Shown: positions 4,577 through 38,730, counted from the stretch's first letter. The stretch: 64,000 bases of DNA from an uncultured Planctomycetales bacterium (GCA_964542785.1 CAZIUK010000001.1:197115-261114), one strand, 5' to 3'. The notes: generated by a model not told the origin, from the letters alone. Program-made: numbers and translations.

Positions 4577-4584
4577 ATTTTAGC

Positions 4585-4875
4585 ATGTTTTGGACCATAA
4601 TTGGCTCAACAGCAGCAACTCTAACCATGCTTTCTTTTATCCCGCAGATAGTTCGCTCCTATAAAAGCAAGCATGTTAAAGATATCAGCCCGGTTATGCT
4701 CTTTCAGCTCTCTTTAGGTGTCTCTTTATGGATAGCCTACGGCATACACCGCAAAGACCCTATAATTATCATCGCAAACTCCACAACCCTGCTTACGCTC
4801 TTAATCCTCATCTCAATGTATTTTCAGTATGGGGGACGCTCCCCAAGGAGCCACTCTCCAAAGGATTTTGAGTAA
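4585..4875 (+). CDS. SemiSWEET (PQ-loop) sugar transporter; last ~14 codons encoded by MITE copy C
   Basis: 96 aa, 3 TM; the PQ motif (LSFIPQIVRSYKSKHVKDIS) and YGIHRKDPIIIIAN match bacterial SemiSWEETs closely; C-terminus GGRSPRSHSPKDFE is translated from the MITE TIR. Confidence 0.8.
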   Translation: MFWTIIGSTAATLTMLSFIPQIVRSYKSKHVKDISPVMLFQLSLGVSLWIAYGIHRKDPIIIIANSTTLLTLLILISMYFQYGGRSPRSHSPKDFE

Positions 4876-4943
4876 AATCGTATAAAAAAATGCAAAAAAT
4901 CGGTCATTTTCGAAGAAGAGTGGTACCTCGGAGAGCGTCCCCC
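4832..4943. mobile_element. MITE-like element, copy C
   Basis: GGGGACGCTCCCCAAGGAGCCACTCTCCAAAGG ... GAAGAGTGGTACCTCGGAGAGCGTCCCCC. Confidence 0.7.
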
Positions 4944-5711: not shown

Positions 5712-5740
5712 GGGGACGGTTCCTCGCTTCTCAACTCCAG
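5711..5740. repeat. degenerate solo MITE end
   Basis: GGGGACGGTTCCTCGCTTCTCAACTCCAG resembles the TIR with several mismatches. Confidence 0.25.
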
Positions 5741-5816
5741 TAATTACATTACCTTACAACAACATCAAAATATTAGCTGATCCAACCCTCAACAAAAGGA
5801 GGGGAAAATCCCTTAA

Positions 5817-6076
5817 ATGAAGCCTAATAAAATTTTAACCCTTCTCTTTCTCTTCAGCATCGCGTTCTTCCTGCCCAACGCCTCTGCTCAACCCTTATTC
5901 GGCAAAGACTACCTGCAAACCCTTGATAAACACCTAACCCAATCCAAAGACTCTATCACCGTAGCCATGTATTTTATTATAATCACCCCCGAAGACAACC
6001 CAACCCCGGCTAACCAACTCGTAAATTCCCTCATCGCCGCAAAGAATCGCGGAGTAAAAATAAAGGTAATCTTAAA
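5817..6076 (+). pseudogene. PLD-family Nuc-like endonuclease/phospholipase D gene truncated by MITE copy E
   Basis: Signal peptide then KDSITVAMYFI...ANQLVNSLIAAKNRGVKIKVIL matches the N-terminal half of Nuc-type PLD proteins; reading frame runs into the MITE just before where the HxK(x)4D motif would be. Confidence 0.6.
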
Positions 6077-7710: not shown

Positions 7711-8478
7711 ATGAAAGTAGTTATATTAGCAGGAGGCAGGGGCACACGCATTAGCGAAGAGACAGAAGTTTTGCCAAAGCCGATGATTCAGATAGGAGGC
7801 AGGCCTGTGCTTTGGCATATAATGAAACTATACTCCCACTATGGCTTTAATGATTTTATTATCTGCTTAGGGTATAAGGGTTTTGTGATTAAAGAATATT
7901 TTGCAAATTACTTCCTGCACTCCTCTGACATAACCATAGACCTAAATAATAATAAAATAGAGGTTATCGGTTCAAAGGCAGAGCCTTGGAAGGTTACTCT
8001 TATTGATACGGGTTTAGAGACGATGACCGGAGGCAGGATTAAGCGGATAGAAAAATATACGCAAGATAAACCCTTTCTTTTAACTTACGGCGACGGGGTA
8101 GGGGATGTAAATATAAAAGAATTAGTAGAGTTCCATAAATCAAAAAACAAGCTTGCCACAGTAACTGCCGTACAATTAGAAGGAAGGTTCGGCGCTTTAA
8201 ATATTGAAAAAGAAGATGAGGTCTCTTCCTTTGCGGAAAAACCCCGCGGCGACGGAGCTTGGATAAACGGCGGATTTTTTGTTTTAGAGCCGGGGATATT
8301 CAAATATATCAAGGACGATACTATTATTTGGGAGCATGGGCCATTAGAAAAGCTAGCCAAAGACAATCAGCTAAACGCCTACAAGCATAAAGGTTTTTGG
8401 AAGTGTATGGATACCTTAAGGGATAAGGTTGAGTTTGATCTTCTATGGAGTGCCGGGAAAACCCCTTGGATAAAATAG
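7711..8478 (+). CDS. rfbF: glucose-1-phosphate cytidylyltransferase
   Basis: N-term MKVVILAGGRGTRISEETEVLPKPMIQIGGRPVLWHIM matches RfbF/DdhA; 255 aa. Confidence 0.9.
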   Translation: MKVVILAGGRGTRISEETEVLPKPMIQIGGRPVLWHIMKLYSHYGFNDFIICLGYKGFVIKEYFANYFLHSSDITIDLNNNKIEVIGSKAEPWKVTLIDTGLETMTGGRIKRIEKYTQDKPFLLTYGDGVGDVNIKELVEFHKSKNKLATVTAVQLEGRFGALNIEKEDEVSSFAEKPRGDGAWINGGFFVLEPGIFKYIKDDTIIWEHGPLEKLAKDNQLNAYKHKGFWKCMDTLRDKVEFDLLWSAGKTPWIK

Positions 8479-8489
8479 CAAGAGTATTT

Positions 8490-9461
8490 ATGAATAGAAA
8501 GTTTTGGGAAAATAAGAGAGTTTTAATTACTGGCTTTGAAGGATTTTTGGGCTCTAACCTTACAAAAGAACTTCTTAAGACAAAAGCCAAGATAGTAGGG
8601 TTAGATATTAAAACCTTCCGTAAGGAAACAATTTTATCCCGCGATGATTATAAAAGGTTTACCGTATATAAAGGTAGTGTAGCTAACTTTAACCTCGTTA
8701 AAAAGATACTCCGTAAGCACTCTATAAACGTAATTTTTCACTTAGCCGCAGAGGCGACTGTTGGCAGTAGCCACAGCCACCCTCGTAAGGCGTTTAAGTC
8801 CAATATAACCGGGACTTGGGAGGTATTAGAGTCAACGCGTAACCAAGGGAAGATAGAGGCAATAGTAGTCGCTTCAAGCGATAAGGCGTATGGAAGCCAT
8901 AAAAAACTCCCTTACCGCGAGGATGCGCCTTTAATAGCCAACCACCCTTATGACGTATCCAAAAGTTGCGCTGACTTGATAGCGCAAACTTATGCTTATA
9001 CCTATGATTTGCCGATAGCAGTTACCCGTTGTGGGAATATATTCGGCCCCGGGGACTTTAACTTTACCCGCCTTATACCGGATGCTATCCGCTCTGCGCT
9101 TAAAAACCGCTTCTTTTTTATCCGCAGTAACGGAAAGTTTATACGCGACTATATCTATGTAAGCGATATAGTAGATGGGTATATACTCTTAGCTGAAAAG
9201 ATAAGAAAACTAAAACTTAAAGGAGAGGCATTTAATTTTAGCGATGAGAAGCCAAAGAGGGTATTAGAGGTGGTAGAAAAAATTTATCAACTGATGAAGA
9301 AAGAAAAGCGCTATAAAATATTAAACAAAGCAGAGTATGAGATAAAGAATCAATACTTATCTTCTAAAAAATCCAAAAGGATATTAGGTTGGAAGCCGCG
9401 CTATTCCTTTGAGTCGGGGTTAAAAGAGACGATTAAGTTTCTGCGTAAGGAATTATTATGA
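8490..9461 (+). CDS. rfbG: CDP-glucose 4,6-dehydratase
   Basis: FWENKRVLITGFEGFLGSNL Rossmann motif, YDVSK catalytic motif; follows rfbF. ATG 8490 preferred over the track start 8445. Confidence 0.85.
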   Translation: MNRKFWENKRVLITGFEGFLGSNLTKELLKTKAKIVGLDIKTFRKETILSRDDYKRFTVYKGSVANFNLVKKILRKHSINVIFHLAAEATVGSSHSHPRKAFKSNITGTWEVLESTRNQGKIEAIVVASSDKAYGSHKKLPYREDAPLIANHPYDVSKSCADLIAQTYAYTYDLPIAVTRCGNIFGPGDFNFTRLIPDAIRSALKNRFFFIRSNGKFIRDYIYVSDIVDGYILLAEKIRKLKLKGEAFNFSDEKPKRVLEVVEKIYQLMKKEKRYKILNKAEYEIKNQYLSSKKSKRILGWKPRYSFESGLKETIKFLRKELL

Positions 9462-10504
9462 GTTTGATTGAACGGGATTTAGCCCACATATTAGATAAAA
9501 CTAAATTTTTATGGAGAGAAGTAAAGGGAAAGAAGATATTTGTTACCGGAGGCACGGGTTTTATCGGGCGCTGGCTCTTAGAGAGTTTTGCCTTTGCTAA
9601 TAAAGAGTTAAACCTTAATGCCTCTCTTGTGCTCCTTACAAGAGACCCAAGGCGTTTTGAAAAGAAAGCTAAAAATATTGTTGCTGATAAGTCTATAAAT
9701 TTGCTCAAAGGAGATGCCGTAAGTTTTACTTTCCCAAAAGGAAAATTTGATTTTGTCATCCACGCGGCAACAGAGGACAGGTATCCTTTAAATTCTTTAG
9801 AGTTGTATGAGAGTAATGTAAAAGGAACGCAGAGGGTTTTAGATTTTGCGGTAAGGTGCGGGTGTAAAAAGTTTTTATTTACCAGTTCCGGAGCTGTCTA
9901 TGGAGTTCAACCTATAAATATAGCTAATCTGCCTGAAGATTATCCGGGGGCGCCTAAGCCAAATGAAATAAATTATGCTTATGGGCATAGCAAGAGGATA
10001 TCTGAGTTTTACTGCGCGCAATATGCGAAAAAATTCGGCTTTGGGGTAAAGATTGCTCGCTGTTTTGCTTTTTTAGGGCCCTATCTTCCTTTAGACTTAA
10101 ACTACGCAGTAGGCAACTTTATAAGGGATGCCCTTACTAGGAAGAGCATAATCGTCAAGACAAATAACCGCGTGTATCGCTCTTATTTATACTCTGCTGA
10201 TTTGGCAATTTGGCTTTGGACTATTTTGTTTAAAGGTGAGAATAACTTGCCCTATAATGTCGGTTCTTCCAAGCCGATAACTATTTTAGATTTGGCTAAA
10301 AAGATAACCCGTATTTTAGGAGTATCAAAAAAGATTGTAATACTAAAGAAGGGTAAGCGCATAAAGACAGAGCGCTATATCCCGGATGTTAAATTAGCGC
10401 AAACTACCCTTAACTTAAAAGAGTTTATTGGTTTAGGCCAAGGCATCCGCAGGATGTCAGAGTTTTATTCAAGCGCAACTTGTATAAATAGCGGGTGTCA
10501 ATAA
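9458..10504 (+). CDS. NAD-dependent sugar epimerase/reductase (SDR family)
   Basis: VTGGTGFIGRWL and the YGHSK YxxxK motif. Confidence 0.8.
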   Translation: MSLIERDLAHILDKTKFLWREVKGKKIFVTGGTGFIGRWLLESFAFANKELNLNASLVLLTRDPRRFEKKAKNIVADKSINLLKGDAVSFTFPKGKFDFVIHAATEDRYPLNSLELYESNVKGTQRVLDFAVRCGCKKFLFTSSGAVYGVQPINIANLPEDYPGAPKPNEINYAYGHSKRISEFYCAQYAKKFGFGVKIARCFAFLGPYLPLDLNYAVGNFIRDALTRKSIIVKTNNRVYRSYLYSADLAIWLWTILFKGENNLPYNVGSSKPITILDLAKKITRILGVSKKIVILKKGKRIKTERYIPDVKLAQTTLNLKEFIGLGQGIRRMSEFYSSATCINSGCQ

Positions 10505-10518
10505 AAAAAGGAGAAGAT

Positions 10519-11388
10519 ATGAGTGAAGTCAAGATTGCTAATGTTTTAGTAGGGGATAATCATCCTTGTTATATTGTCGCTGAAATAGGGATTAACCATA
10601 ACGGAGATATTGATATAGCTAAGATGCTCATTGATGTTGCGATAAAGTTTGGATGTAATGCCGTTAAATTCCAAAAGAGGACCGTTGGTGTCGTCTATTC
10701 TGCTGAAGAGCTTGCCCGGCCAAGAGAGAGCCCTTTTGGCTCTACTAATGGCGATTTAAAATATGGGTTAGAGTTTGAATTAGAGGATTATCAGGAGATT
10801 GATAATTATTGTCGCCAAAAAGGCATTGTTTGGTTTGCTTCTTGCTGGGATGAGGCATCTGTTGATTTTATACAGCAGTTTGATGTCCCTTGTTTTAAGA
10901 TTGCCTCAGCTACCCTTACTGACAGCAAGCTCTTAAGCCACCACAGGTCTAAGGCAAAGCCCATCATATTAGGGACAGGGATGAGCACGATTGAACAGAT
11001 TGACCGCGCGGTAGAGGTTCTTGGCAAGAAGGACTTAATTATACTTCATTCTACAAGCACGTACCCTGCAAATTACGATGAACTAAACTTAAAAGTAATC
11101 AGCGTCCTTCAAAAAAGATACGGGGTTCCGATAGGTTATTCCGGCCATGAAACCGGCGTCCCTGCCTCTGTCGCAGCTGCGGCTTTAGGCGCTTGTATGA
11201 TTGAGCGCCATATAACTTTAGACCGGGCAATGTGGGGTTCGGATCAGGCAGCATCTTTAGGGCCTTCGGGAGTTGAGCAATTAATACGCGATATCAGGTT
11301 AGTAGAGATGTCTATGGGAGACGGAGTAAAGAAGGTTTATGAGAGGGAGTACCCAATCCTAAAAAAACTTCGCAGAGTCCACTCTTAA
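10519..11388 (+). CDS. NeuB-family (N-acylneuraminate/nonulosonate synthase-like) protein lacking the C-terminal SAF domain
   Basis: CYIVAEIGINHNGDIDIAKMLIDVA..GCNAVKFQ NeuB signature; ends about 50 aa short of canonical NeuB; RBS AAAGGAGAAG before ATG 10519. Confidence 0.75.
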   Translation: MSEVKIANVLVGDNHPCYIVAEIGINHNGDIDIAKMLIDVAIKFGCNAVKFQKRTVGVVYSAEELARPRESPFGSTNGDLKYGLEFELEDYQEIDNYCRQKGIVWFASCWDEASVDFIQQFDVPCFKIASATLTDSKLLSHHRSKAKPIILGTGMSTIEQIDRAVEVLGKKDLIILHSTSTYPANYDELNLKVISVLQKRYGVPIGYSGHETGVPASVAAAALGACMIERHITLDRAMWGSDQAASLGPSGVEQLIRDIRLVEMSMGDGVKKVYEREYPILKKLRRVHS

Positions 11389-11393
11389 AAAAA

Positions 11394-13187
11394 ATGATAA
11401 AGGTCTCAGATTACATAATGAAATTCTTGGTATCTAAAGGGGTACGCAATGTCTTTATGCTCCCGGGAGGAGGGGCTATGCATTTAGTTGACTCCCTTGG
11501 CAGGTGTAAAGAGCTAACCTATACCTCTTTTTTGCACGAACAGGCATTGGCTATTGCAGTAGAATCCTTTAGCCAATTCTCAGGTTTTGTTGGAGTAGGG
11601 CTGGTTACTTCTGGTCCCGGCGGGACGAATACGATTACCGGAGTAACTGCTGCTTATCTTGATTCTACCCCTTGCATCTTTATCTCCGGGCAGGTAAAGC
11701 GTTCGGACTTAAAGTTAAAGAGTAGGCTGCGTCAAAAAGGCCCGCAAGAAGTGGACATTATCTCGCTGGTTTCTCCTATTACAAAATATTCAGTTATGGT
11801 CTTAGAGCCAAAGGATATACGTTATCACTTAGAAAAGGCATGGGTATTAGCAACAACTGCAAGAAAAGGCCCTGTTTGGTTAGATATCCCTTTAGATGTC
11901 CAGTCTGCGCTTATTGATGAGGATAAGTTAAAGGGTTTTTCTCTTAGGCCCAAAGCAAGACAGAGGGGTTTGACTAATAAGGTTAAAAGAGTTATTTCTC
12001 TTCTAAATAAGTCAAAATGCCCTTTGATTTTAGCCGGCAATGGGGTGAGGCTTTCAGAAGCACAAGAGCTTTTAAGCAATTTTATAGAGGTTAATCAGAT
12101 ACCTGTTTTGCTTACTTGGAAGGCAATTGACTTTTTTGATAGCGCTCATACTTTAAATTTCGGCAGCCCCGGTATTATGGGCAGCCGTTTTGCTAACTTT
12201 ATAGTGCAAAATTGCGACCTTTTGCTTATATTAGGAAGCAGGTTAGATCCCAGTATTACTGCTTTTAATAGTAGGGAGTTTGGGAAGAATGCAACAAGGG
12301 TTATGGTTGATATTGATAGGAGAGAGATTTCTAAGATACCTAACCTTGATTTAGGCGTTGTAGCAGATATGGGCGAGTTTTTAACGACTTTACAAAATAA
12401 CCAGAGATTGATAAACCTTAAGCCCCGCTTAGAGTGGCTTTCATATTGTAAGGGGCTTAAAGAAAAATACCCGGTTGTCCTAAAGGATTATTCCGATAGT
12501 AAAGATAATATAAATCTTTATTATTTTATTGATACTCTTTTTAAGGAGTTATCTTCAGATGATGTTATTACGCCTGAGAGTTCAGGCTCTGCCGGAGAGG
12601 TTACTTATCAGGCAATTAACGTTAAAAAAGGGCAAAAAATAAGAAATGCCGCGGGTTTAGGGTCAATGGGTTTTGGCCTGCCTTATGCAATAGGCGCTTG
12701 TATTGCCACAGGCATTAAGCGCACTATACTCATAAATGGCGATGGGGCTTTTCAGTTAAATATCCAAGAGTTAGAGGTTGTTGCGCGCTTAAAATTGCCT
12801 ATTAAGATGTTTATACTGGAGAATAACGGATACGGTAGTATTATGGCTACACAAAGAAATATCTTTAATGGTTTTTATGTAGGCGCTCATCCTGAAAGCG
12901 GGCTTACCCTGCCTAATTTATCTAAAATTGCCAATACCTATGGGATTACTTATGTAGAAGCAACTAACCATAATGACTTAACCCCTGCCATAAAACGTTC
13001 TTTGCAGGCAGACGGCCCTGTTTTATGCGCGGTCAAGGCTAAAAATCACATAACTTCTCCAAGGGTTCAATCATTAAAACTTTCCAACGGCGGGATGATT
13101 TCAAAACCCTTAGAGGATATGTGGCCGTATTTATCGCCTGAGGAGATAAAAGAGAATATGTTAAAAAAGGACTATATATATGATTAA
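11394..13187 (+). CDS. thiamine-diphosphate enzyme, acetolactate-synthase-large-subunit-like (YerE-like candidate)
   Basis: GPGGTNTITGVTAAYLDSTPCIFISGQV and the ThDP motif GDGAFQLNIQELE..ILENNGYG. Confidence 0.85.
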   Translation: MIKVSDYIMKFLVSKGVRNVFMLPGGGAMHLVDSLGRCKELTYTSFLHEQALAIAVESFSQFSGFVGVGLVTSGPGGTNTITGVTAAYLDSTPCIFISGQVKRSDLKLKSRLRQKGPQEVDIISLVSPITKYSVMVLEPKDIRYHLEKAWVLATTARKGPVWLDIPLDVQSALIDEDKLKGFSLRPKARQRGLTNKVKRVISLLNKSKCPLILAGNGVRLSEAQELLSNFIEVNQIPVLLTWKAIDFFDSAHTLNFGSPGIMGSRFANFIVQNCDLLLILGSRLDPSITAFNSREFGKNATRVMVDIDRREISKIPNLDLGVVADMGEFLTTLQNNQRLINLKPRLEWLSYCKGLKEKYPVVLKDYSDSKDNINLYYFIDTLFKELSSDDVITPESSGSAGEVTYQAINVKKGQKIRNAAGLGSMGFGLPYAIGACIATGIKRTILINGDGAFQLNIQELEVVARLKLPIKMFILENNGYGSIMATQRNIFNGFYVGAHPESGLTLPNLSKIANTYGITYVEATNHNDLTPAIKRSLQADGPVLCAVKAKNHITSPRVQSLKLSNGGMISKPLEDMWPYLSPEEIKENMLKKDYIYD

Positions 13188-13650
13188 GCTCTTATTACTT
13201 GATATTGACGGCGTGTTAACAGACGGAAAGGTTACGGTTGATTCAAAAGGCAACGAATATAAAACCATAAGCTTTAAAGATATTGATGCAATATTTGAGG
13301 CAAAGCGCAAAAACATACTGGTAGGCCTTATTACCGGCGAAGATACCCCGGTTACGCTTTTTTTCCGCAGGCGTTTTAAGCCGGATTTTTTTTACAAGGG
13401 GTGTAAAGATAAGGTAAGAGCGCTTAAGGAGATTATGCGCAAAACCAAAATAGGGATTAATGAAATTTGTTATATCGGCGACTCTAAGCACGATATTCCT
13501 GTTATGAAATTGATAAAGTTCTCTGCTTGTCCGTCTGATGCTTTAACTGAAGTAAAAAGAATAGCAAAGATACGCCTTAAATCTACCGGAGGAGAGGGCT
13601 GTGTCCGGGAAGTTTTAACCTATATTTTTAACTTATATATTGAAAGGTAA
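13180..13650 (+). CDS. HAD-IIIA phosphatase, KdsC/YrbI-like (sugar-acid phosphate phosphatase)
   Basis: LLLDIDGVLTDGKV DxDG motif; GDSKHD; 156 aa. Confidence 0.7.
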   Translation: MIKLLLLDIDGVLTDGKVTVDSKGNEYKTISFKDIDAIFEAKRKNILVGLITGEDTPVTLFFRRRFKPDFFYKGCKDKVRALKEIMRKTKIGINEICYIGDSKHDIPVMKLIKFSACPSDALTEVKRIAKIRLKSTGGEGCVREVLTYIFNLYIER

Positions 13651-13655
13651 AGCCT

Positions 13656-14774
13656 ATGAAGATAAATTATAATGATATTCAACTAAAAAAATATCTTTTG
13701 AAGTTATTTAGAGAAAAGAGAAATTATAAAAAAGAGCTTAAGGGCTTAATAGATAAATATAATTTTGTGGTATTTTATGGTTGTGGAATGATTTTAAGTA
13801 GTATTATAGAAACATGGGACAAACAAATAAACAGGAAGATATCTTATTTGTGTGATAGCGATAGCAGAAAATGGGGAAAGTATTTTCACGGGATAAAGTG
13901 TTTATCGCCTAAAGAGTTGATTGCTATAAAAAACGACCCTGTGGTCTTTGTTACTATAGGAGATTACAAGGAGGTATTTAATTCTTTGAAAAAGAAGAAA
14001 TTTCCCTCGGTAAATTTATTATATAAATATGATTTAGAAGCATCGCGTTTTTTAATCAATTGCAATATTTTGGATGTGGTCGGCAAATTGATCAGGGTTT
14101 ATAGTTATTTATCCGACGCTCAATCTAAACGGGTGTTTTTATCTATAATTAACCGGGTTTTGGATGAAAAAGCTCCGGTAAATATAATGGCAGGTGTTTA
14201 CGAACCGGATCAGTATTTTCCTTCAGATGTAATTAACCTTACAAAAAATGAGAGCTTTGTTGATATTGGCGCTTTTGACGGAGATACTATCAGGGATTTT
14301 ATAAAGAGGGTTCGGGGAAGATTTGATAATATCTTTTCCTTTGAGGTTAATAAAAACAACTTTAAGTTATTAAGGAAGAGCATTGATAATATTCCTAATA
14401 ATTCTAAAATAAAGATTTATAACTTTGGCATTTCTGATAAAGAGTATGATATTAGGTATAGTTTTGGTGATTCTCAAAGCACTATAGGTGTTGGAACCGG
14501 TAAGGGGCATGTTAAGCCATTAGATAATGTTTTATCAAAGAAAAAAGTTACATTTATAAAGATGGATATAGAGGGAGCGGAGCTCAATGCCTTGCGTGGT
14601 TCAAAGGAGATAATTAAATCCCAAAAACCGAAATTGGCTATAAGCGTTTACCATGACTTTAAACATCTGTGGGAAGTTCCATTATATATAAAAAAACTTG
14701 TTCCGGATTACAAGATTTATTTTCGTCATCATACAAACTTAGAATATGAAACAGTTTGTTATGCTATTCTTTAA
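13656..14774 (+). CDS. FkbM-family methyltransferase
   Basis: FVDIGAFDGDT and IKMDIEGAELNAL FkbM motifs. Confidence 0.8.
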   Translation: MKINYNDIQLKKYLLKLFREKRNYKKELKGLIDKYNFVVFYGCGMILSSIIETWDKQINRKISYLCDSDSRKWGKYFHGIKCLSPKELIAIKNDPVVFVTIGDYKEVFNSLKKKKFPSVNLLYKYDLEASRFLINCNILDVVGKLIRVYSYLSDAQSKRVFLSIINRVLDEKAPVNIMAGVYEPDQYFPSDVINLTKNESFVDIGAFDGDTIRDFIKRVRGRFDNIFSFEVNKNNFKLLRKSIDNIPNNSKIKIYNFGISDKEYDIRYSFGDSQSTIGVGTGKGHVKPLDNVLSKKKVTFIKMDIEGAELNALRGSKEIIKSQKPKLAISVYHDFKHLWEVPLYIKKLVPDYKIYFRHHTNLEYETVCYAIL

Positions 14775-14798: not shown

Positions 14799-15854
14799 AT
14801 GACTGAAAAAGAGATAGAACAGGCAAAGAGAGAGAAATTGCGGAGAGAAAAGCCATTTGTCTTTGAAAAGGTTATTAATATTGAAAAAAGGCATAAATTA
14901 GGGTTGGCTACGCCAATAATTGATATTGCCTATGATTACCTGTGCAATCTTAAGTGTAGTCATTGCACTGCTTCGCGCTTCTCAAGGAAGGGCGGCCGCA
15001 GTTTAACTGTTGCTGACTTAAGAAGAATCAGCAATGAAGCGCATAAATTAGGGTTCTGTCAATTTTGTATCTCCGGAGGAGAGCCGTTGATTTTCAAGGA
15101 TTTAGATAAGGTGATATTGGCTTTACAGCCGGATAAGTTTCATCTAACTATGAGTACTAACGGGCATTTCTTGACCTTGGAAAGGGCGCGGCATCTAAAA
15201 AATCTTGGTTTGGATAAGGTAAAGATAAGTTTGGATGATTTTCGTGTTGAAGAACACGAAAAGAACCGCAAGAGTAAGGGAGCATATCAAAAAGCAATAG
15301 ATGCCTTATTTAATGCTAAAGAGGCGGGTTTAAGTGTAGTGGTTCAAACAGTTGTAACTCATCAAAATTGCATGAACGGCCAATTAATTGAGATGGCAGA
15401 GTTCGCTACGAAGAACAATTTTATTCTTGATGTTTTAATTGCCCGCGCTTTGGGAGCGTGGGAAGGAAAGCACGAAGTTTTAATTGATGCCAAAGATTCT
15501 GAATATCTTTTAGAATTGCATAAAAAATACCCGTGTTTACACCGTGATACTTTTCCTTCTTATGGGATGGATAAGGGGTGTAGCTGTGTAGATTCAACCT
15601 TGCATATTACAAAATATGGGGATGTTATGCCTTGTGCTTATATTCATATTGCTATAGGCAACATATTCCAAGAGACTTTAGAGGAGATTGTTAAAAGAGG
15701 CCAAAGTATTAAGCATTTTAAGAAATATAGTAGATTATGCCTCTCAGGGGAAGACAGGGATTTTATTAATAATTATATGACCAAGTTTTACGGCAAGCCA
15801 TTGCCTATACATTGGTCAGAAGCTTTTAAAGGAGAGGATTTTTGTGAAGATTAA
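14799..15854 (+). CDS. radical SAM protein with C-terminal SPASM/twitch domain
   Basis: CNLKCSHC CX3CX2C; C-terminal Cys-rich CSCVDS...GDVMPC. Confidence 0.8.
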   Translation: MTEKEIEQAKREKLRREKPFVFEKVINIEKRHKLGLATPIIDIAYDYLCNLKCSHCTASRFSRKGGRSLTVADLRRISNEAHKLGFCQFCISGGEPLIFKDLDKVILALQPDKFHLTMSTNGHFLTLERARHLKNLGLDKVKISLDDFRVEEHEKNRKSKGAYQKAIDALFNAKEAGLSVVVQTVVTHQNCMNGQLIEMAEFATKNNFILDVLIARALGAWEGKHEVLIDAKDSEYLLELHKKYPCLHRDTFPSYGMDKGCSCVDSTLHITKYGDVMPCAYIHIAIGNIFQETLEEIVKRGQSIKHFKKYSRLCLSGEDRDFINNYMTKFYGKPLPIHWSEAFKGEDFCED

Positions 15855-16866
15855 ATATACTGCCCTTAAATCAACTAACCGGCAAAACCTAAAGGAGATC
15901 CTGCCCCTTAAAAAGCCGTTTACCCTTTTGATAGAGCCATCTAGTTTATGTAATTTTAGATGCATCCAATGCTTTCAGTCTCTTACAATAGATAACTACT
16001 TTACAAGGACTAAGATGAATATGCCCATTAATCGCTTTAAGCAGATATTAGGGCAATTAAAAATCTGGAAAGGGCCTAATCTTAAAGTTCTTAAATTAAA
16101 CTTGTATGGCGAGCCATTTATGAGCCCTGATTTTTACGCTATGCTTAAACTTGCCAAAGAAGCGGATATCGCAGAGCGGATAGAGACAACCACTAATGCT
16201 TTTTTATTAAATGAGCGTATAGCCGAAGAGTTAGTGCGTCTTCAACTTGATTATGTCAGGGTATCTATCTATGCTGTTGACCAGAAGACGCATGAAGAGC
16301 GCACAGGGGTAAAGGCGGATTTCCGTATTATTTATGAAAACCTAAAAGCCCTTAAAAATATAAAAAGAAGGGTTAATTCTTTAAGCCCGTTTGTTAGTTG
16401 CAAGATGTTGGATTCTTTTGGAGAGGAGAATAAACGTTTTGAAGATACATACAGAGAGGTTTGTGATGAAGTTTACATAGAAAAGCCGCATAATTGGCTT
16501 AAGGTAGAGGGTGTAAACTTTATGCAAAACTATTATCAAGATGATATTAATAAGGCAGTTAATGATTTTACGGCTCATACCTCAAGAAGGATTGCTTGCC
16601 CTATGCCTTTTACTACTATGGCTGTGCGCTCTAATGGGGATGTATCTCCTTGTTGTGTGGATTTTATCGGCGGGACTAACTTAGGTAATGTTGATAAAAA
16701 CTCTTTAGAAGAGATATGGAACTCAGATAAATGGTTTGAGTTTCAAAAGATGCAGTTAGAGGATAGAAAGCAGGAGAATTACTCTTGCGCAAGATGCGAT
16801 ATCTATCTAAATGACTACTACACCTTAGATAATATTGATGGTTTTCCCGTTGAAAAATTAAGGTAA
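15844..16866 (+). CDS. radical SAM protein with C-terminal SPASM domain (GTG start)
   Basis: CNFRCIQC motif; C-terminal CPMPF...GDVSPCC...; overlaps the previous stop. Confidence 0.8.
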   Translation: MKIKYTALKSTNRQNLKEILPLKKPFTLLIEPSSLCNFRCIQCFQSLTIDNYFTRTKMNMPINRFKQILGQLKIWKGPNLKVLKLNLYGEPFMSPDFYAMLKLAKEADIAERIETTTNAFLLNERIAEELVRLQLDYVRVSIYAVDQKTHEERTGVKADFRIIYENLKALKNIKRRVNSLSPFVSCKMLDSFGEENKRFEDTYREVCDEVYIEKPHNWLKVEGVNFMQNYYQDDINKAVNDFTAHTSRRIACPMPFTTMAVRSNGDVSPCCVDFIGGTNLGNVDKNSLEEIWNSDKWFEFQKMQLEDRKQENYSCARCDIYLNDYYTLDNIDGFPVEKLR

Positions 16867-16901: not shown

Positions 16902-17843
16902 ATGACTAATAAGTTGTTAATAAGCATAGTAAGCGGATGTTACAACGAAGAGGGGAATCTCCAGGAGTTTTATGACCGAATTATAAAGATTTTAAGAGGA
17001 TTCCCGCACTATTCGTATGAAATAATTATCGCAGATAATTACTCTACGGATAAGAGCAAGGAAATATTAAGACGGATTGCTTTAAAAGATAAAAACTTTA
17101 AGGTAATTTTTAATTCTAATAATTTTGGGCATATCCGCTCAGGATATAATGCGTTATTGCAGGCAACCGGGGATGCGGTTATTTTGTTAAGTTCTGATTT
17201 ACAAGACCCGATAGAACTTATACCGTCTTTAATTAAAAAGTGGGAAGAGGGATTCCAGGTAGTTGTGGCTTTAGGAAAGAAAAAATACGGAAACCCTCTT
17301 ATTCTCTTATTAAAGAAGGCCTATTATTACTTGCTCTCTAAAGATTCCAAAGAAACTGATGTTATACCGAATTTTTATGGTTTTGGTTTATACGGTCGTA
17401 AATTTATGCAGGCATTGCGTAAGTATAATGAGCCGGAGCCGTATTTCCGTAATTTAATCAGTGAAATTGGTTTTCGGCGTGCTGAGATTGAATTTGTTCA
17501 ACCGCCTAGAAAATGCGGGAACTCAAAGTACAACTTCTTTACTCTATATGATTTAGCCATGCTTGGGTTTATTAATCAATCTAAATTGTTGTTGAGATTG
17601 CCGGTTTTTCTTGCTTTTTTACTGGGGGGCATTAGTTTATTTTCAATTTCTATTATTATGATATATAAACTTATACATTGGGGGTGGGTTTTACCGGGAT
17701 CAATTTTATTTTTCTTAATCTTTTTATTTGCTTTTTCTGTGCAGATAATATTTATCGGTGTTATCGGAGAATACTTATCTGTTATTTTGTCTCAAGTTAA
17801 AAATAAGCCCCTTGTAATAGAGGAGGAGAGGATTAATTTTTAA
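16902..17843 (+). CDS. GT2 glycosyltransferase, polyprenyl-phosphate sugar synthase-like (ArnC/GtrB type) with C-terminal TM helices
   Basis: SIVSGCYNEEGNL, DNYSTDKS, DLQDP motifs; two C-terminal TM helices. Confidence 0.8.
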   Translation: MTNKLLISIVSGCYNEEGNLQEFYDRIIKILRGFPHYSYEIIIADNYSTDKSKEILRRIALKDKNFKVIFNSNNFGHIRSGYNALLQATGDAVILLSSDLQDPIELIPSLIKKWEEGFQVVVALGKKKYGNPLILLLKKAYYYLLSKDSKETDVIPNFYGFGLYGRKFMQALRKYNEPEPYFRNLISEIGFRRAEIEFVQPPRKCGNSKYNFFTLYDLAMLGFINQSKLLLRLPVFLAFLLGGISLFSISIIMIYKLIHWGWVLPGSILFFLIFLFAFSVQIIFIGVIGEYLSVILSQVKNKPLVIEEERINF

Positions 17844-17857
17844 AAAAGGAGAATGAA

Positions 17858-18997
17858 GTGCCGGTTTTTGCCTGTCGGGTTTGTAAAAATAATTTTTTTG
17901 ATAAGCCGTTATTATCTTATAAAGATATGCCTAAGGGAGCGCAGAACTTTCCGGATTCTTGCTCCTTAAAATCAGATGCAGGTGTTGATATATCAATTTA
18001 TCAATGCTCCGGGTGCGGGCTTGTGCAATTAAGCAATGACCCTGTTCCCTATTATAGGGAGGTAATAAGGGCTGTGGCTTTTTCAGATGTTATTAAGGCC
18101 GCAAAAACCAAACAATTTATGGATTTTATCAATAAATATTCTCTTAAGGATAAGAAAATCATAGAGATTGGTTGCGGCCGCGGGGAGTTTCTTTCTTTAT
18201 TAAAGCCTTTAGATGTAATGGCTTATGGTTTAGAGTTTTCAGATAATTCTGTTGGCTATTGTAAAAAAAACGGGCTTAATGTGCAAAAAGGATATTTAGA
18301 TGATAGCAATATTAAATTAAAGAATAGCCCATTTGACGCTTTTTTATTACTGATGTTTTTAGAGCATATGCCTGACCCGAACACTGCGTTAAGAGCGGTG
18401 TATAATAATTTATCAGAAGGCGGGGTGGGTATAGTTGAAGTCCCGAATTTTGATATGTTTTTAAGGAATAAGCTCTTTTCAGAGTTTGTGATTGACCATT
18501 TGCTTTATTTTGTCAAGGATACTTTAAGGGTAACTTTATTTTTAAATGGATTTGAGGTCCTTGAAAGCAATGAATTGCGCGATGATTATGTTATCTCTTT
18601 TGTCGTTAAAAAAAGAGCAAAAACAGATATTAAGCAATTTTATGATTACCAGTTAAAAATAACTTCAGAGATTAACGAATATATAAACCGTTTTGGAAAA
18701 AAGAGAATTGCTATATGGGGGGCAAGCCATCAGGCGCTTTTTATTATTTCTTTGACAAAAATATCCGATAAAATTAAATATGTCATAGATTCGGCTCTTT
18801 TTAAGCAGGGAAAATATACCCCTGCTACCCATGTGCCTGTTGTTTCTCCTGACCTTCTTGATTCTGACCCGGTTGATGCGGTTATCATTATGGCGGCTAG
18901 CTATTCTGATGAGGTATTGGGCATAATACGGCAGCGTTTTAGCAAAGATATATCCATAGCTATATTGCGGGATTTTGGGCTGGAGATATGTAATTAA
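17858..18997 (+). CDS. NDP-sugar C-methyltransferase (TylCIII-like: Zn-ribbon + SAM MTase + C-MT C-terminal domain); GTG start
   Basis: CRVCKNN...CSGCG zinc ribbon, IIEIGCGRGEFL SAM motif; length and architecture of sugar 3-C-methyltransferases. Confidence 0.7.
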   Translation: MPVFACRVCKNNFFDKPLLSYKDMPKGAQNFPDSCSLKSDAGVDISIYQCSGCGLVQLSNDPVPYYREVIRAVAFSDVIKAAKTKQFMDFINKYSLKDKKIIEIGCGRGEFLSLLKPLDVMAYGLEFSDNSVGYCKKNGLNVQKGYLDDSNIKLKNSPFDAFLLLMFLEHMPDPNTALRAVYNNLSEGGVGIVEVPNFDMFLRNKLFSEFVIDHLLYFVKDTLRVTLFLNGFEVLESNELRDDYVISFVVKKRAKTDIKQFYDYQLKITSEINEYINRFGKKRIAIWGASHQALFIISLTKISDKIKYVIDSALFKQGKYTPATHVPVVSPDLLDSDPVDAVIIMAASYSDEVLGIIRQRFSKDISIAILRDFGLEICN

Positions 18998-19006
18998 GTT
19001 TTTTAA

Positions 19007-20542
19007 ATGGATAATACATTTTTAACTAACCAAAAAAGAGTCAATTTCTTTCCTAAAGCATTGGTAATTATATCTATTTTCCTTATTACTTTTATTATCT
19101 TTGGTTTTTTTTCTACTATTGGCGTTGATCCGCATCATGATGGATTAATGTTTAAGACGGCATTGGATGTTGCTAAGGGTAAGATGTTATTTAGGGATAC
19201 CTTTACTCAATATGGAGTGCTTGTTCATATAATTCATGCTTTATTACTGAATATTTTAGGGGAGTATTTAATTGTCATAAAAATTGCTACTGTTTTTTTC
19301 TATGCTTTGATATTTGTTTTTTTATTTTTAGTCCTAAAAAGAATTATACCGCGGATACTTACGGTTATTTCTATCGTAGTTTGGCTATTATTAGCCCCAT
19401 TTTATATTATGATTTTTTTGCCTTGGCCTTCGGTTTACGCGCTTTTTTTCCAATTATTATGCGTATGGCTTTTGATGCGTTGGTTAGAAACAAGGTTGAG
19501 TTTATATATTTTTTTAACAGGTATTACTACGGCTTTAGTTTTTTTATGCCGGCAGCCGGTAGGTTTTTTTACCTTTACTGCTATGGCCTTTTTTTATCTC
19601 TATCTTTTTTTACAAAGAGAAATCAGCATATTTGAATTTAGAAAGATTCTTTTAAATTATGCAGCAGCTTATTTTGCGATTTTTTCAATTTTTTTAATCT
19701 GGTTATTAATTAACAACGCTTTGATAGATTGGTGGAAGCAATCCATTATTATGCCTTTTCTTTGGGCGGTTAAACAGCCAGCCGGTATTAACATAGGAAG
19801 TTCTTCTGCAGCTGTTTCTCAGCCCTTTATTGGGCTTGATAACCTTGGCATTGGTTTAGTTAGCACTAGGGGGTTTTATGTTGAAAGAGCTGGATTATTT
19901 TTATACTTAGCCCGGGCAATTGTTTATTTTTGGTTTTTACTTCCTTTTTTATCATTTATAAGGAACCGTAAGAACATCCCTATAGTTTTATTTTCTATTA
20001 TTTGTATTGCTTCTGGTTTACAAATTTATCCGGTTCGCGATATTCGTCATATTTATTGGTCATTTGTTTTGATGCCGGGTATAATTGCCCTATTGGTTTA
20101 TCAGTTTACCGGAAAGTTCTTTAAGTATAACCCTAAAGTTTCAAAAAAGGCAGTACTTTTCATAAGTGCTAGTATTTTTATACTCATTTTTTTGCTTCTC
20201 ACCGCAGTATATCTTATAAGGGGCATAGACAAGGCAAAGGATGAGTATTATTTTGCTGATAAACCCCTTGTTTTAAAAGGCATGCGTTTAACTAAAAAAG
20301 AGAGGGATTTTTACCAGCGGGTCTACCAAAAAATAGAAAAATATTTTATGGGTAATCCTTCAGGTAATGTCCTTATTGATAGTGGAAATATGATTTTTTT
20401 AACCTTTGATAACAGGATAAAAAATATACATCCTATATATTTTAATTTATCTTATTCTCCTTGCTATCCGGAGTATCAAAAAATAAGAAATGAATATATC
20501 TTATCTAATAACCCTTTAATACTTCTTGATAATTTAGAATGA
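19007..20542 (+). CDS. polytopic membrane protein (>=10 TM), possibly a GT-C type glycosyltransferase or polymerase
   Basis: Hydrophobicity only; no recognisable motif. Confidence 0.5.
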   Translation: MDNTFLTNQKRVNFFPKALVIISIFLITFIIFGFFSTIGVDPHHDGLMFKTALDVAKGKMLFRDTFTQYGVLVHIIHALLLNILGEYLIVIKIATVFFYALIFVFLFLVLKRIIPRILTVISIVVWLLLAPFYIMIFLPWPSVYALFFQLLCVWLLMRWLETRLSLYIFLTGITTALVFLCRQPVGFFTFTAMAFFYLYLFLQREISIFEFRKILLNYAAAYFAIFSIFLIWLLINNALIDWWKQSIIMPFLWAVKQPAGINIGSSSAAVSQPFIGLDNLGIGLVSTRGFYVERAGLFLYLARAIVYFWFLLPFLSFIRNRKNIPIVLFSIICIASGLQIYPVRDIRHIYWSFVLMPGIIALLVYQFTGKFFKYNPKVSKKAVLFISASIFILIFLLLTAVYLIRGIDKAKDEYYFADKPLVLKGMRLTKKERDFYQRVYQKIEKYFMGNPSGNVLIDSGNMIFLTFDNRIKNIHPIYFNLSYSPCYPEYQKIRNEYILSNNPLILLDNLE

Positions 20543-20558: not shown

Positions 20559-21875
20559 ATGAGCAAAGCCAATGAAGTTAAGAGCAGGATTTTTAGGTTA
20601 GTTAAAGAGTTTTATTGTAAGCAGAAATGTAATAAACCCTTTTCCTTCGGAGAAAGTAGGGTTGAATACGGGGGAAGGGTCTATGATGAAAAAGAGATTA
20701 TTAACCTTGTTGATTCTGCGCTTGAGTTTTGGTTAACTGCCGGCCGTTATACAAAGGAGTTTGAAAGCGCGTTAGCAAGGTTTATTAAAATTAAGCATTG
20801 CCTTTTGACAAACTCCGGCTCTTCAGCCAACCTTTTAGCCATGACTGCCCTAACCTCGCCCTTATTAAAAGAAAGGCGCCTTAAGCCAAAGGACGAGGTT
20901 ATAACTACTGCCTGTGGTTTTCCTACTACGCTTAACCCTATTTTGCAAAATAATCTTACTCCTATATTTATTGATATAGAGTTAGGAAATTATAATATTG
21001 ATGTAAATAAAATTAAAAGAGCTATCTCTAAGAGGACAAGGGCAATTTTTACTGCGCATACTTTAGGTAATCCCATAAACATTGATGAGATAAAAAAATT
21101 AGTAAAAAAACATAAACTCTGGTGGATTGAAGATAATTGCGATGCCTTGGGCTCAAGGTATCGCGGTAAATATACAGGCGGCTTTGGCGATATTTCTACC
21201 TGCAGTTTTTATCCTCCGCATCATATTACTATGGGAGAAGGGGGAGCGGTTTTAACAAACAATCCTCTTTTAAGAAGAATTGTATTATCTTTGCGTGATT
21301 GGGGTAGGGATTGCTGGTGTGAGCCAGGCAAGGATGATACCTGTAAAAGAAGGTTTAGCCAAAAATTCGGCACCCTACCCTATGGGTATGACCATAAGTA
21401 TGTATATTCACATATCGGCTATAATTTAAAAGTTACTGATATGCAGGCGGCAATAGGTTGCGCGCAATTAGATAAACTGCTTAAGTTTATTTTAGTAAGA
21501 AAGGCTAATTTTAAGGCCATATACGGGTTCTTTAAGAAATACGAAGATTATTTTATACTGCCTCAAGCGCAAGAATATTCAAGCCCAAGTTGGTTTGGTT
21601 TTCCAGTGTTAGTTAAAGAAGGCGCGCCTTTCAAAAGAAATGATATAGTTAATTATTTAGAGTCGCATAAGATTGCTACAAGGATGCTTTTTGGGGGGAA
21701 TTTATTAAGACAGCCGGCTTATAAGGGTATAAAATGCCGCATAGTTGGAAACTTAAAGAATACTGACTTAGTTATGAATAATCTTTTTTGGATTGGCGTT
21801 TATCCGGGGTTAACTAAAGAAAAACTTTGCTATATAGAAAAAACTTTATCTGATTTTATGAGGAGGCATAGATGA
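20559..21875 (+). CDS. rfbH: CDP-4-keto-6-deoxy-D-glucose-3-dehydrase (E1, RfbH/DdhC type)
   Basis: DegT-fold protein; His-His (FYPPHHITMGEGG) replaces the PLP lysine; CWCEPGKDDTC fits the CXCX7C 2Fe-2S motif of E1; 438 aa. Confidence 0.85.
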   Translation: MSKANEVKSRIFRLVKEFYCKQKCNKPFSFGESRVEYGGRVYDEKEIINLVDSALEFWLTAGRYTKEFESALARFIKIKHCLLTNSGSSANLLAMTALTSPLLKERRLKPKDEVITTACGFPTTLNPILQNNLTPIFIDIELGNYNIDVNKIKRAISKRTRAIFTAHTLGNPINIDEIKKLVKKHKLWWIEDNCDALGSRYRGKYTGGFGDISTCSFYPPHHITMGEGGAVLTNNPLLRRIVLSLRDWGRDCWCEPGKDDTCKRRFSQKFGTLPYGYDHKYVYSHIGYNLKVTDMQAAIGCAQLDKLLKFILVRKANFKAIYGFFKKYEDYFILPQAQEYSSPSWFGFPVLVKEGAPFKRNDIVNYLESHKIATRMLFGGNLLRQPAYKGIKCRIVGNLKNTDLVMNNLFWIGVYPGLTKEKLCYIEKTLSDFMRRHR

Positions 21876-24852: not shown

Positions 24853-25628
24853 ATGACATACGCAGTTATATTAGCAGGCGGGGTAGGGAGCAGGTTTTGG
24901 CCATTTTCGCGGGAGCTTGAGCCAAAGCAGTTTATGAAGATAGTAGGCGAAGAGAGCCTCTTGCAATCTACTATTAAGCGCGTAGAGGGAGTAGTTCTTC
25001 AGAAGAATATCTTTATAGTTACAAATAGTATCTACTTTTATGAGGTTTTAAATCAGATAAAAGGATTTAAGATTCCTGAGCAGAATATAATCTTAGAGCC
25101 GGAAGGAAAAAATACAGCCCCGGCTGTTGGGTTGTGCGCTCGTTTGATACTTAAAAAAGACAAAGATGCGGTTTTACTGGTTTTGCCTGCAGACCACTAT
25201 ATTAAAGATAATCTTAAATTCAGGCAGGTTATTAATAAGGCGGTTGAATGCGCGCGTAAGGATTTATTAAACGTAAAGAGCGTGTTACACATTTAACAGA
25301 AAGAAGGCCTTGGGGGTCTTTTACAGTCCTGCAGGCAGGATTGGGTTTTAAGATAAAGTTAATTGAGATTAGCCCGGGCAAGCGCTTAAGCTTGCAGAGG
25401 CATCAAAAGAGAGCAGAGCATTGGGTGGTTGTCTCCGGGGTAGCTAAGGTTATAAGTGGGAATAAGGTTAAGCTAGTGCGCAGCAATGAGAGTATCTATA
25501 TACCAAAGGGAATTAAACATAGGCTTGAAAATAAAGGAAGGGTTCCGTTAAAGATAGTTGAGGTTCAGACCGGCTCTTATCTTGAGGAAGATGATATAGA
25601 GCGGTTTGATGATGATTTTAGGCGGTAA
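24853..25628 (+). pseudogene. manC: mannose-1-phosphate guanylyltransferase gene with central ~200-codon deletion
   Basis: N-term AVILAGGVGSRFWPFSRELEPKQF (24853-25296) and the C-terminal cupin IEISPGKRLSLQRHQKRAEHWVVVSG...VQTGSYLEEDDIERF (25341-25628) are both ManC-like but are separated by a stop; about 220 aa of the middle are missing. Confidence 0.75.
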
Positions 25629-38729: not shown

Positions 38730-38730
38730 A

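Follow-up and report, generated by a model that had tools for sequence, protein, structure and literature searches.

Positions 14799–16866 of a 64,000-nucleotide stretch of DNA from an uncultured Planctomycetales bacterium (GCA_964542785.1, CAZIUK010000001.1:197115–261114; hereafter the window) correspond exactly to two open reading frames (ORFs) on the + strand, rSAM1 and rSAM2, each predicted to encode a radical S-adenosylmethionine (SAM) enzyme. An FkbM-family methyltransferase gene ends 24 nt 5′ of rSAM1, just outside this range. An earlier note on this DNA had reported two adjacent radical-SAM enzymes plus an FkbM methyltransferase, a description upheld by the Pfam matches of the two ORFs and a TIGR01444 match of the methyltransferase. 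We consider it probable, though well short of certain, that rSAM1 and rSAM2 are sugar-tailoring enzymes of a cassette for a CDP-activated, long-acyl-branched, methylated 3,6-dideoxyhexose. This estimate covers the general role of the pair in a branched-sugar cassette and not the specific reactions, which are graded separately below.

Both proteins exceed the Pfam cut-offs for the radical-SAM core (PF04055, 29.5 bits) and the auxiliary SPASM domain (21.5 bits), with scores of 90 bits (E = 2.5e-25) and 31.5 bits for rSAM1 and of 56.9 bits and 61.5 bits for rSAM2. They share only 21% identity with each other. Judging from conserved motifs, each retains all hallmarks of a SAM-cleaving enzyme: the CxxxCxxC motif (C49/C53/C56 in rSAM1 and C36/C40/C43 in rSAM2) is invariant or 97–100% conserved among homologues, and the GGE-type SAM-binding motif is invariant (S92-G93-G94-E95-P96 in rSAM1 and Y88-G89-E90-P91 in rSAM2). 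Because each enzyme has hundreds of homologues at 62–81% identity in metagenomes and metagenome-assembled genomes (MAGs), the observation lies far beyond chance. A search of 1.84 billion cluster representatives returned 229 clusters at E ≤ 1e-30, with scores that fall smoothly and leave no gap, so that no sharp limit of the family can be drawn from this search.

From 7711 to ~24658, every gene lies on the + strand in a tightly packed run. Since the spacers flanking the radical-SAM pair measure 24 and 35 nt and carry GGAGG sites, and since the two reading frames overlap by 11 nt, this co-directional run is probably one transcription unit that includes rSAM1 and rSAM2.

The earlier note had assigned SPASM/twitch domains to both enzymes, and the twitch part of that label stands for rSAM2. 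The seven-cysteine SPASM motif, including CX2CX5CX3C, is present in neither protein by cysteine count and alignment, which rules out a full SPASM assignment. Despite Pfam SPASM scores above cut-off, the auxiliary domains are, as their cysteines indicate, single-cluster and twitch-like, with four BtrN-type cysteines in rSAM2 and only three in rSAM1.

A BtrN-type twitch domain in rSAM2

Residues 246–319 of rSAM2 align without gaps to residues 163–236 of BtrN (HMMER, E = 9e-9). In the aligned sequences, C252, C270, C315 and C318 of rSAM2 fall on the four cluster cysteines of BtrN, which we take to be C169, C188, C232 and C235, giving rSAM2 a predicted twitch domain of BtrN type. The twitch cysteine columns were followed in an alignment of 113 radical-SAM proteins from the related loci described below, in which the rSAM2 paralogue groups R2b and R2c also keep four twitch cysteines. 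BtrN is the 2-deoxy-scyllo-inosamine dehydrogenase of the butirosin pathway and the radical counterpart of an NAD-dependent dehydrogenase. The two proteins share the spacing of the twitch domain and its four cysteines, and both belong to carbohydrate pathways; however, the alignment is confined to the twitch domain, and the core hardly aligns (5 bits). BtrN is also shorter (250 aa versus 340 aa), and its substrate is an aminocyclitol, whereas that of rSAM2 would be a CDP-linked branched sugar. The rSAM2 family has two extra cysteines relative to BtrN: Cys271, which is invariant, and Cys98 (DFCEML), which is near-invariant and occurs in at least 90% of 20 aligned homologues, the closest one included.

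The N-terminal core of rSAM2 (res. 25–175) matches DesII (E = 8e-7), the TDP-4-amino-4,6-dideoxyglucose deaminase/dehydrogenase, and both enzymes would act on a nucleotide-6-deoxyhexose. DesII differs from rSAM2 in its length (~490 aa) and in having no auxiliary cluster, and the cassette core has no 4-aminotransferase step. BlsE, DesII and BtrN, all of which act on sugars, are in this order the three best PDB matches of the low-confidence rSAM2 model in Foldseek, and AprD4 ranks 48th. We did not name rSAM2 through structure, as a model this poor (predicted local distance difference test, pLDDT, 64) provides a hint at most.

A three-cysteine auxiliary site in rSAM1

The four-cysteine BtrN-type pattern is absent from rSAM1. 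Of the twitch cysteine columns, the first three are kept in rSAM1, as C261 (98% of 52 family members), C279 and C314 (both 100%). The fourth column is occupied by Gly in 52 of 52 members, and also in the sister family described below. Because of this Gly, and because C191, the other candidate ligand, is conserved in only 88%, rSAM1 has a three-cysteine variant of the auxiliary site, whose iron is either open or held by a ligand other than cysteine.

The predicted structure of rSAM1 (pLDDT 79.7, pTM 0.82) has no close relative among solved structures in our fold search. All structural matches are at ≤21% identity, SkfB and SuiB ranking best in Foldseek, and we rejected naming rSAM1 through structure as the fold matches are generic. 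By sequence, the best PDB match is MoaA (E = 1e-9), whose auxiliary cluster has three cysteine ligands and binds the substrate. The two enzymes thus have a three-cysteine auxiliary site in common; however, they are only ~20% identical, the three cysteines lie at other positions, MoaA family models score ~100 bits against cut-offs of 231–325, and the gene context of rSAM1 is unrelated to molybdopterin.

The rSAM1 cassette across species

A scan with rSAM1, limited to one genome per species, yielded 53 loci with rSAM1 relatives, 52 of them at 54–74% identity. By tblastn and ORF clustering, the cassette occurs in 52 species from more than ten phyla. Named hosts include Syntrophus buswellii DM-2 (complete genome), Victivallis vadensis, Smithella, Geobacter and Accumulibacter, and further hosts belong to Omnitrophota, Riflebacteria, Elusimicrobia, Planctomycetia, Saganbacteria, Fibrobacterota, Oscillospiraceae and Acetatifactor. 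The loci closest to that of the window come from Omnitrophota and an unclassified MAG. The shared gene order is [cytidylyltransferase–dehydratase–E1]–SDR–NeuB–HAD–ThDP–(FkbM)–rSAM1–(rSAM2 types)–GT2–GtrA–C-methyltransferase, where SDR denotes a short-chain dehydrogenase/reductase and ThDP a thiamine diphosphate-dependent enzyme. Of the 53 loci, 44 contain the ThDP-enzyme gene. In eight of those without it the sequence breaks off within 4.5 kb 5′ of rSAM1, and the remaining one (L055) belongs to the sister family and has a transketolase. rSAM1 is a core gene of the cassette.

rSAM2-type genes vary from zero to four copies per locus and form three paralogue groups. All eight loci without such a gene (L009, L011, L013, L014, L015, L019, L021 and L026) carry a GFO/IDH/MocA oxidoreductase together with a short-chain SDR, a pair found in none of the loci with rSAM2. 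The exchange occurs even inside the Terrimicrobiaceae/Verrucomicrobia loci, where L026 has the GFO/SDR pair and L022, L023 and L025 have rSAM2. The pair looks like a non-orthologous replacement of rSAM2, and the complementarity is suggestive rather than proof. BtrN and NeoA, a radical enzyme and its NAD-type counterpart, offer a parallel to these eight loci, in which NAD-type oxidoreductases take the place of rSAM2. In L009, the sole one of the eight annotated in detail, the next gene after the GFO/SDR pair encodes a TylF O-methyltransferase.

Other variable genes encode extra FkbM copies, TylF, B12-dependent radical-SAM enzymes, carbamoyltransferases and GDSL esterases, which argues for a heavily decorated sugar. 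In the Syntrophus buswellii DM-2 locus (L030, NZ_CP175563.1 881864–902904), the genes upstream of rSAM1 encode a carbamoyltransferase, a GDSL esterase and four paralogous FkbM proteins. A downstream gene encodes a protein of 1996 aa that combines several GT2 domains with a GT1-like domain and TPR repeats. Four loci (L035, L037, L048 and L050) encode an extra protein of ~547 aa (ORF cluster c43; e.g., L035:14260–15903), by its sequence probably a B12-binding radical-SAM enzyme acting as a C-methyltransferase. With it, a locus can contain up to five radical-SAM genes. We found no description of the rSAM1/rSAM2 cassette or of either subfamily in the literature searched.

A Prochlorococcus match of rSAM1 (L055:7512–8594, 36% identity) belongs to a second large family, the sister family, with 695 matches, the 120 listed being 57–100% identical to the query. 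It also has the three-cysteine site in the 113-protein alignment. In six of six loci (L055–L060), the sister gene lies beside a split transketolase, which is a ThDP enzyme, a short-chain SDR and a FabA-like dehydratase, and the same six cassettes also contain AMP-ligase, LuxE and LuxC genes. An ORF of ~80 aa adjoins the sister gene in four of the six, and the EWDS carrier-protein motif is present in both such ORFs that were translated. The sister cassette may supply a surface sugar with an unusual acyl group. It often adds a B12-radical-SAM enzyme, TauD or MBOAT, and in L059 the sister gene is next to NeuB(+SAF) and a CMP-sugar synthetase. A trio of an rSAM1-type enzyme, a ThDP enzyme acting on C–C bonds and an SDR thus recurs in two different pathways, and this recurrence suggests that rSAM1-type enzymes act on, or next to, a ketol made by the ThDP enzyme.

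The 53 loci derived from rSAM1 and the six sister-family loci share L055 and make 58 distinct loci, all of which lie among sugar or acyl-pathway genes. Together with the BtrN twitch match, this context agrees with the earlier proposal that the pair are sugar-pathway enzymes and not peptide maturases.

Genes surrounding the radical-SAM pair

Table 1 Genes of the rSAM1/rSAM2 locus (positions in the window).
Feature	Position	Strand	Evidence
Glucose-1-phosphate cytidylyltransferase (RfbF/DdhA type)	7711–8478	+	TIGR02623 413.5 bits (cut-off 300)
Extended SDR, CDP-glucose 4,6-dehydratase-like	8445–9461	+	TIGR02622 207.5 bits (below cut-off 278)
Extended SDR (SDR2), candidate YerF-like reductase of the acyl branch	9458–10504	+	Pfam Epimerase 119.7 bits
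NeuB-like phosphoenolpyruvate (PEP)-condensing synthase without SAF domain	10495–11388	+	PF03102 256 bits; below NeuB/PseI equivalog cut-offs
YerE-like ThDP-dependent carboligase	11394–13187	+	Three TPP_enzyme domains
KdsC/KDN-9-P-phosphatase-like HAD phosphatase	13180–13650	+	NF058599 123.5 bits; TIGR01670 104.7 bits (cut-off 106.95)
FkbM-family methyltransferase	13656–14774	+	PF05050 45.9 bits and TIGR01444 58.6 bits, both above cut-off
rSAM1, core radical-SAM enzyme	14799–15854	+	351 aa; Pfam Radical_SAM and SPASM
rSAM2, BtrN-type twitch radical-SAM enzyme (predicted), accessory/variable	15844–16866	+	340 aa, GTG start; Pfam
GT2 polyprenyl-phosphate glycosyltransferase (ArnC/GtrB/PgfS-like)	16902–17843	+	PF00535
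Sugar C-methyltransferase type	17858–18997	+	PF13489 (Methyltransf_23) and PF08484 (C-methyltransferase C-terminal domain)
511-aa polytopic membrane protein	19007–20542	+	Strongly hydrophobic sequence; 30% homologue in L035
E1, CDP-6-deoxy-L-threo-D-glycero-4-hexulose 3-dehydrase (RfbH/DdhC)	20559–21875	+	NF011936 699.8 bits (cut-off 423)

The genes around the pair (Table 1) suggest, by their content, a YerE-like sugar pathway: the cytidylyltransferase and E1 pass their equivalog models, the dehydratase falls below its cut-off, and the reductase E3 is absent. The dehydratase-like SDR also matches Pfam GDP_Man_Dehyd and Epimerase and co-occurs with the cytidylyltransferase and E1 in 19–20 related loci. 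E1 contains C-x57-C-x-C-x7-C, and the aminotransferase Lys is replaced in it by His (PPHH). Among PDB entries, the ThDP enzyme matches JanthE best (8rph; E = 5e-100, 339 bits), ahead of all acetolactate synthases, and JanthE has been described as a YerE-like enzyme (PMC12188165). The NeuB-like synthase, 41–78% identical across 40 related loci, is the proposed maker of a 4-hydroxy-2-keto-acid phosphate donor. An extended-SDR family recurs in 41 related loci, and the putative role of SDR2 as a YerF-like reductase follows from the scheme in PMC9306805. The HAD phosphatase and FkbM families each occur in 37 related loci, FkbM in up to four copies (in Syntrophus buswellii), and the C-methyltransferase family in 42. 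The GT2 family is found in 34 loci, usually followed by GtrA, and the copy in the window scores 144.6 bits for PgfS and 99 bits for the ArnC type, each below cut-off. The 511-aa membrane protein has no Pfam or NCBIfam match and is possibly a periplasmic transferase for the lipid-linked sugar.

Elsewhere in the window, two ORFs at 24853–25628 (147 and 95 aa) resemble the N-terminal nucleotidyltransferase and C-terminal cupin parts of a mannose-1-phosphate guanylyltransferase, whose gene is probably split or frameshifted. Two overlapping ORFs at 28990–29699 (114 and 128 aa) jointly resemble an intact 255-aa GT2 at 31021–31788, and look like a frameshifted duplicate of it. Each GT2 copy is associated with a GT9 heptosyltransferase-like gene, at 25684–26769 (Pfam Glyco_transf_9) and at 29995–31020 (by resemblance to the first). 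The block at 4001–6000 is the sole 2-kb block with negative GC skew (−0.15), the rest being uniformly positive, and a 273-aa arginine-rich ORF (4890–5711) lies inside it. Adjacent paralogous ORFs at 37704–39726 (341 and 331 aa) share the N-terminus RKDPV/IxGRWVI and are located just upstream of gap-pgk-tpi, genes of glycolysis.

A predicted pathway to a branched surface sugar

The routes to erwiniose, caryophyllose and gastriose fit one scheme: a 4-hydroxy-2-keto acid, formed by an aldolase, is joined to CDP-4-keto-3,6-dideoxyglucose by a YerE-like enzyme, and a YerF-like reductase completes the branch (Steitz et al., PMC9306805). The locus holds candidates for every element of this scheme except the aldolase, and has a NeuB-like enzyme and a phosphatase in its place; from a phosphorylated aldehyde, these two would yield the same type of 4-hydroxy-2-keto acid. 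The earlier note had passed over this NeuB/phosphatase/YerE-like branching logic, which defines the locus. Compared with the YerE, ErwE, MMAR_2332 and MyGE clusters for yersiniose, erwiniose, caryophyllose and gastriose, the cassette would share the CDP-glucose route to a 4-keto-3,6-dideoxy sugar (PMC9306805), the YerE-like ThDP enzyme, a reductase and methyltransferases. It differs in the proposed donor source (a NeuB-like synthase and phosphatase instead of a pyruvate aldolase), in having no E3 and one to five radical-SAM enzymes, in the ArnC/GtrB-like GT2 hand-off to polyprenyl phosphate, and in its hosts, which are mostly anaerobes.

We propose the following route. The cytidylyltransferase, the 4,6-dehydratase-like SDR and E1 would produce CDP-4-keto-3,6-dideoxyglucose, with E1 drawing its electrons from a general ferredoxin or flavodoxin. 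The NeuB-like enzyme would condense PEP with a phosphorylated aldehyde, from which the KdsC-like phosphatase would release a 4-hydroxy-2-keto acid. The YerE-like ThDP enzyme would then decarboxylate the keto acid and add the acyl anion to C4 of the keto sugar. Reduction of the branch ketone by an SDR and methylation by the FkbM and C-methyltransferases would follow, and the GT2 would load the completed sugar onto polyprenyl phosphate so that it can be transferred outside the membrane. The product of the cassette is most likely an undescribed long-branched, methylated cell-surface sugar.

Oxidation, epimerisation and deoxygenation, which the earlier note had listed as candidate reactions for the radical-SAM pair, are still the right candidates. 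For rSAM2, we see an even chance that it catalyses either a BtrN-type oxidation to a ketone or an epimerisation of a secondary alcohol like that of HygY, a twitch-type sugar enzyme that performs radical epimerisation. The substrate would carry a secondary alcohol, either on the sugar itself or on the branch, from which rSAM2 would remove the carbinol hydrogen. The remaining electron could pass to the fully Cys-ligated twitch cluster of the enzyme, leaving a ketone, as in BtrN; or a cysteine could donate a hydrogen atom back from the opposite face, yielding the epimer, as in HygY. Cys271 and Cys98 are the candidate hydrogen donors of the rSAM2 family, and if Cys98 has this role, the window copy could differ in outcome, for example as a dehydrogenase versus an epimerase. 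An oxidation or epimerisation fits the replacement of rSAM2 by a dehydrogenase/reductase pair in eight loci.

For rSAM1, we tentatively suggest a radical dehydratase similar to AprD4 or viperin at the ketol/diol junction made by the ThDP enzyme, a reading that is possible but rather less likely than the one for rSAM2. The ThDP product would be a tertiary alcohol beside a ketone, and its reduction by the SDR would give a vicinal diol, the classic radical-dehydratase substrate. rSAM1 would abstract a hydrogen atom and the neighbouring hydroxyl would be lost, perhaps by way of the free iron of the three-cysteine cluster, which could bind the leaving hydroxyl. An SDR would then reduce the resulting ketone and complete the deoxygenation, as in the AprD4/AprD3 pair of apramycin biosynthesis, a radical 1,2-diol dehydratase and a reductase. 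rSAM1 and the neighbouring SDR resemble this pair in their proposed logic, diol dehydration and then NAD(P)H reduction leading to deoxygenation; the resemblance is one of proposed mechanism only, and AprD4 is not among the top 50 folds for rSAM1.

Several points weigh against a sugar-tailoring role in a branched-sugar cassette, or against the reactions proposed within it. No NCBIfam family model reaches its cut-off for either enzyme: among the equivalogs tested as whole-protein scores (NirJ/AhbC/AhbD, MoaA, PqqE and the tungsten-cofactor maturase), the best scores against cut-offs are 108.7/500 for NirJ2, 106.3/380 for W_rSAM_matur, 100/325 for MoaA and 74.8/381 for PqqE. The nearest structures of rSAM1 are generic (SkfB, SuiB, MoaA, PqqE, viperin, EpeE, BlsE and AbmM; TM 0.45–0.6), with AprD4 outside its top 50 fold matches, and the AlphaFold model of rSAM2 is poor (pLDDT 64). 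The rSAM2 of the window has Tyr98 (PDFYAML, window 16135–16137) where its homologues carry Cys98. The GFO/SDR complementarity comes from only about two independent lineages, and the pair occupies another place in the cassette than rSAM2. No substrate or product is known for any family member, and the literature searches yielded no structure of a glycan for any of the hosts. The sequence of steps and the form in which the radical-SAM enzymes would meet their substrate (CDP-sugar, free keto acid or lipid-linked sugar) are our proposal.

Alternative roles for the two enzymes

Other reactions were also considered for rSAM1. A radical cyclase forming a C–C bond, in the style of MoaA, Cds, HpnJ or PtmC, would link the branch that the ThDP enzyme installs to the hexose a second time, or would cyclise the polyol chain; the resulting sugar would be carbocyclic or bicyclic, in the manner of caryose or bradyrhizose. 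In its favour, rSAM1 has MoaA as its closest PDB entry by sequence and MoaA families near the top of its NCBIfam matches, MoaA ligates its auxiliary cluster through three cysteines, and rSAM1 as core gene could define the product. Carbocycle formation from sugars has, moreover, been proposed for radical-SAM enzymes, and how caryose arises is not established (PMC9092360). We nonetheless find a cyclase unlikely: the likeness to MoaA is limited to the common core and is no better than that to NirJ/AhbD or PqqE, no carbocyclic sugar is known from any host, and cyclisation is not evident in the acyl-carrier context of the sister family. Slightly less likely again is the bolder proposal that rSAM1 represents a new radical-SAM class, with a substrate-binding three-cysteine cluster and a dedicated ThDP-carboligase partner, that forges the C–C bond between branch and hexose. 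Much the same low likelihood as for the cyclase attaches to an action before branching, in which rSAM1 would deoxygenate, epimerise or decarboxylate a NeuB-derived keto acid or its aldehyde precursor. The strict co-occurrence of rSAM1 with NeuB, the HAD phosphatase and the ThDP enzyme (in loci selected with rSAM1) is consistent with this, as are its best NCBIfam matches, the side-chain-processing enzymes NirJ/AhbD, and the radical decarboxylase BlsE among its structural matches; the aldolase-type clusters for erwiniose, caryophyllose and gastriose have also been described without a radical enzyme (PMC9306805). However, the sister family accompanies a transketolase, which uses a ketose and not a NeuB product as its donor, usually with no adjoining NeuB gene, and in the gene order, weak evidence in itself, rSAM1 is preceded by the ThDP-enzyme and methyltransferase genes and followed by that of the glycosyltransferase. 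The three-cysteine site could also hold a sacrificial sulfur donor, as in AbmM, BioB or LipA, making a thio-sugar, and AbmM (8wm2) is among both the sequence and fold matches of rSAM1. We judge this highly improbable, as AbmM is a weak match (E = 2e-6, TM 0.46), genes for sulfur carriers or cluster repair were not seen in the cassettes, and surface glycans of such organisms are not known to contain a thio-sugar.

Two further explanations concern both enzymes. The earlier note had suggested that they substitute for the missing E3, either by passing electrons to E1 or by carrying out the C3 deoxygenation themselves. E3 is indeed missing: E1 with its [2Fe-2S] motif is present, yet no frame of the 64-kb window contains the plant-type [2Fe-2S] motif C-x4-C-x2-C-x20-45-C or a ferredoxin-NADP reductase (FNR) ORF, and a motif scan of all loci by regular expression returned one isolated candidate (L041 14315–15475) and no recurrent E3-like family in the 53 related loci. 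As clusters of aerobes with E3 lack these enzymes, the two distributions are formally complementary. The substitution itself we rejected as very unlikely. Both radical-SAM enzymes keep the full SAM-cleavage machinery, and neither has the FNR-type FAD/NAD(P)H Pfam domain that is the hallmark of E3 (AscD/DdhD) or a plant-type ferredoxin motif. rSAM1 follows the ThDP, NeuB and HAD genes and not E1, which is absent within 10 kb in many loci, and the sister family resides in E1-free acyl-carrier cassettes. SpnQ, an E1-type dehydrase, works with general ferredoxin or flavodoxin reductase systems (PMC8987622). The host also looks anaerobic, with abundant Fe-S proteins, given that the window encodes a rubrerythrin-like ORF at 60447 (recognised by sequence only). 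Still less probable, to the point of being nearly negligible, is that rSAM1 and rSAM2 mature a peptide that is made on the ribosome and modified after translation (RiPP) and happen to lie in a sugar locus. The Pfam SPASM matches, the SkfB and SuiB fold matches of rSAM1 and weak matches to peptide-maturase NCBIfam models would suit such a role, but these models all score far below their cut-offs. An adjacent precursor peptide, which the earlier note had named as the finding that would speak for maturases, was looked for and is absent. The spacers next to the pair leave no space for a precursor gene, no small ORF is conserved across the 53 loci, and the ~80-aa ORF next to the sister gene encodes a carrier protein, to judge from the EWDS motif in the two copies translated. 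Only 48 (rSAM1) and 35 (rSAM2) residues precede CxxxCxxC, too few for a RiPP recognition element, and neither protein matches PqqD. We therefore rejected the peptide-maturase explanation and retain a sugar-tailoring role for the pair.

Discussion

Radical-SAM tailoring of sugars and YerE-type branched sugars are already known. What is new here is their combination with a proposed NeuB/phosphatase donor source, the three-cysteine rSAM1 class with its ThDP link, the hand-off to polyprenyl phosphate, and the spread of the cassette among anaerobes. Acyl-branched higher-carbon sugars such as yersiniose, erwiniose, caryophyllose and gastriose are rare surface antigens, for which a unifying biosynthetic scheme was proposed only in 2022. 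The cassette extends that scheme with a proposed NeuB-like and phosphatase donor, up to five radical-SAM enzymes and polyprenyl-phosphate delivery. It also brings to light two uncharacterised radical-SAM subfamilies, one of which has an unusual three-cysteine site and a recurring link to a thiamine enzyme. If rSAM1 did forge the branch–hexose bond, many anaerobes would display on their surface a higher-carbon sugar that is carbocyclic or bicyclic, like caryose or bradyrhizose. The Syntrophus buswellii DM-2 locus (L030) is a good experimental entry point. Because the cassette is carried by anaerobes of more than ten phyla, among them Syntrophus buswellii and Victivallis vadensis, which are both in culture, a family of surface sugars not yet described is to be expected.

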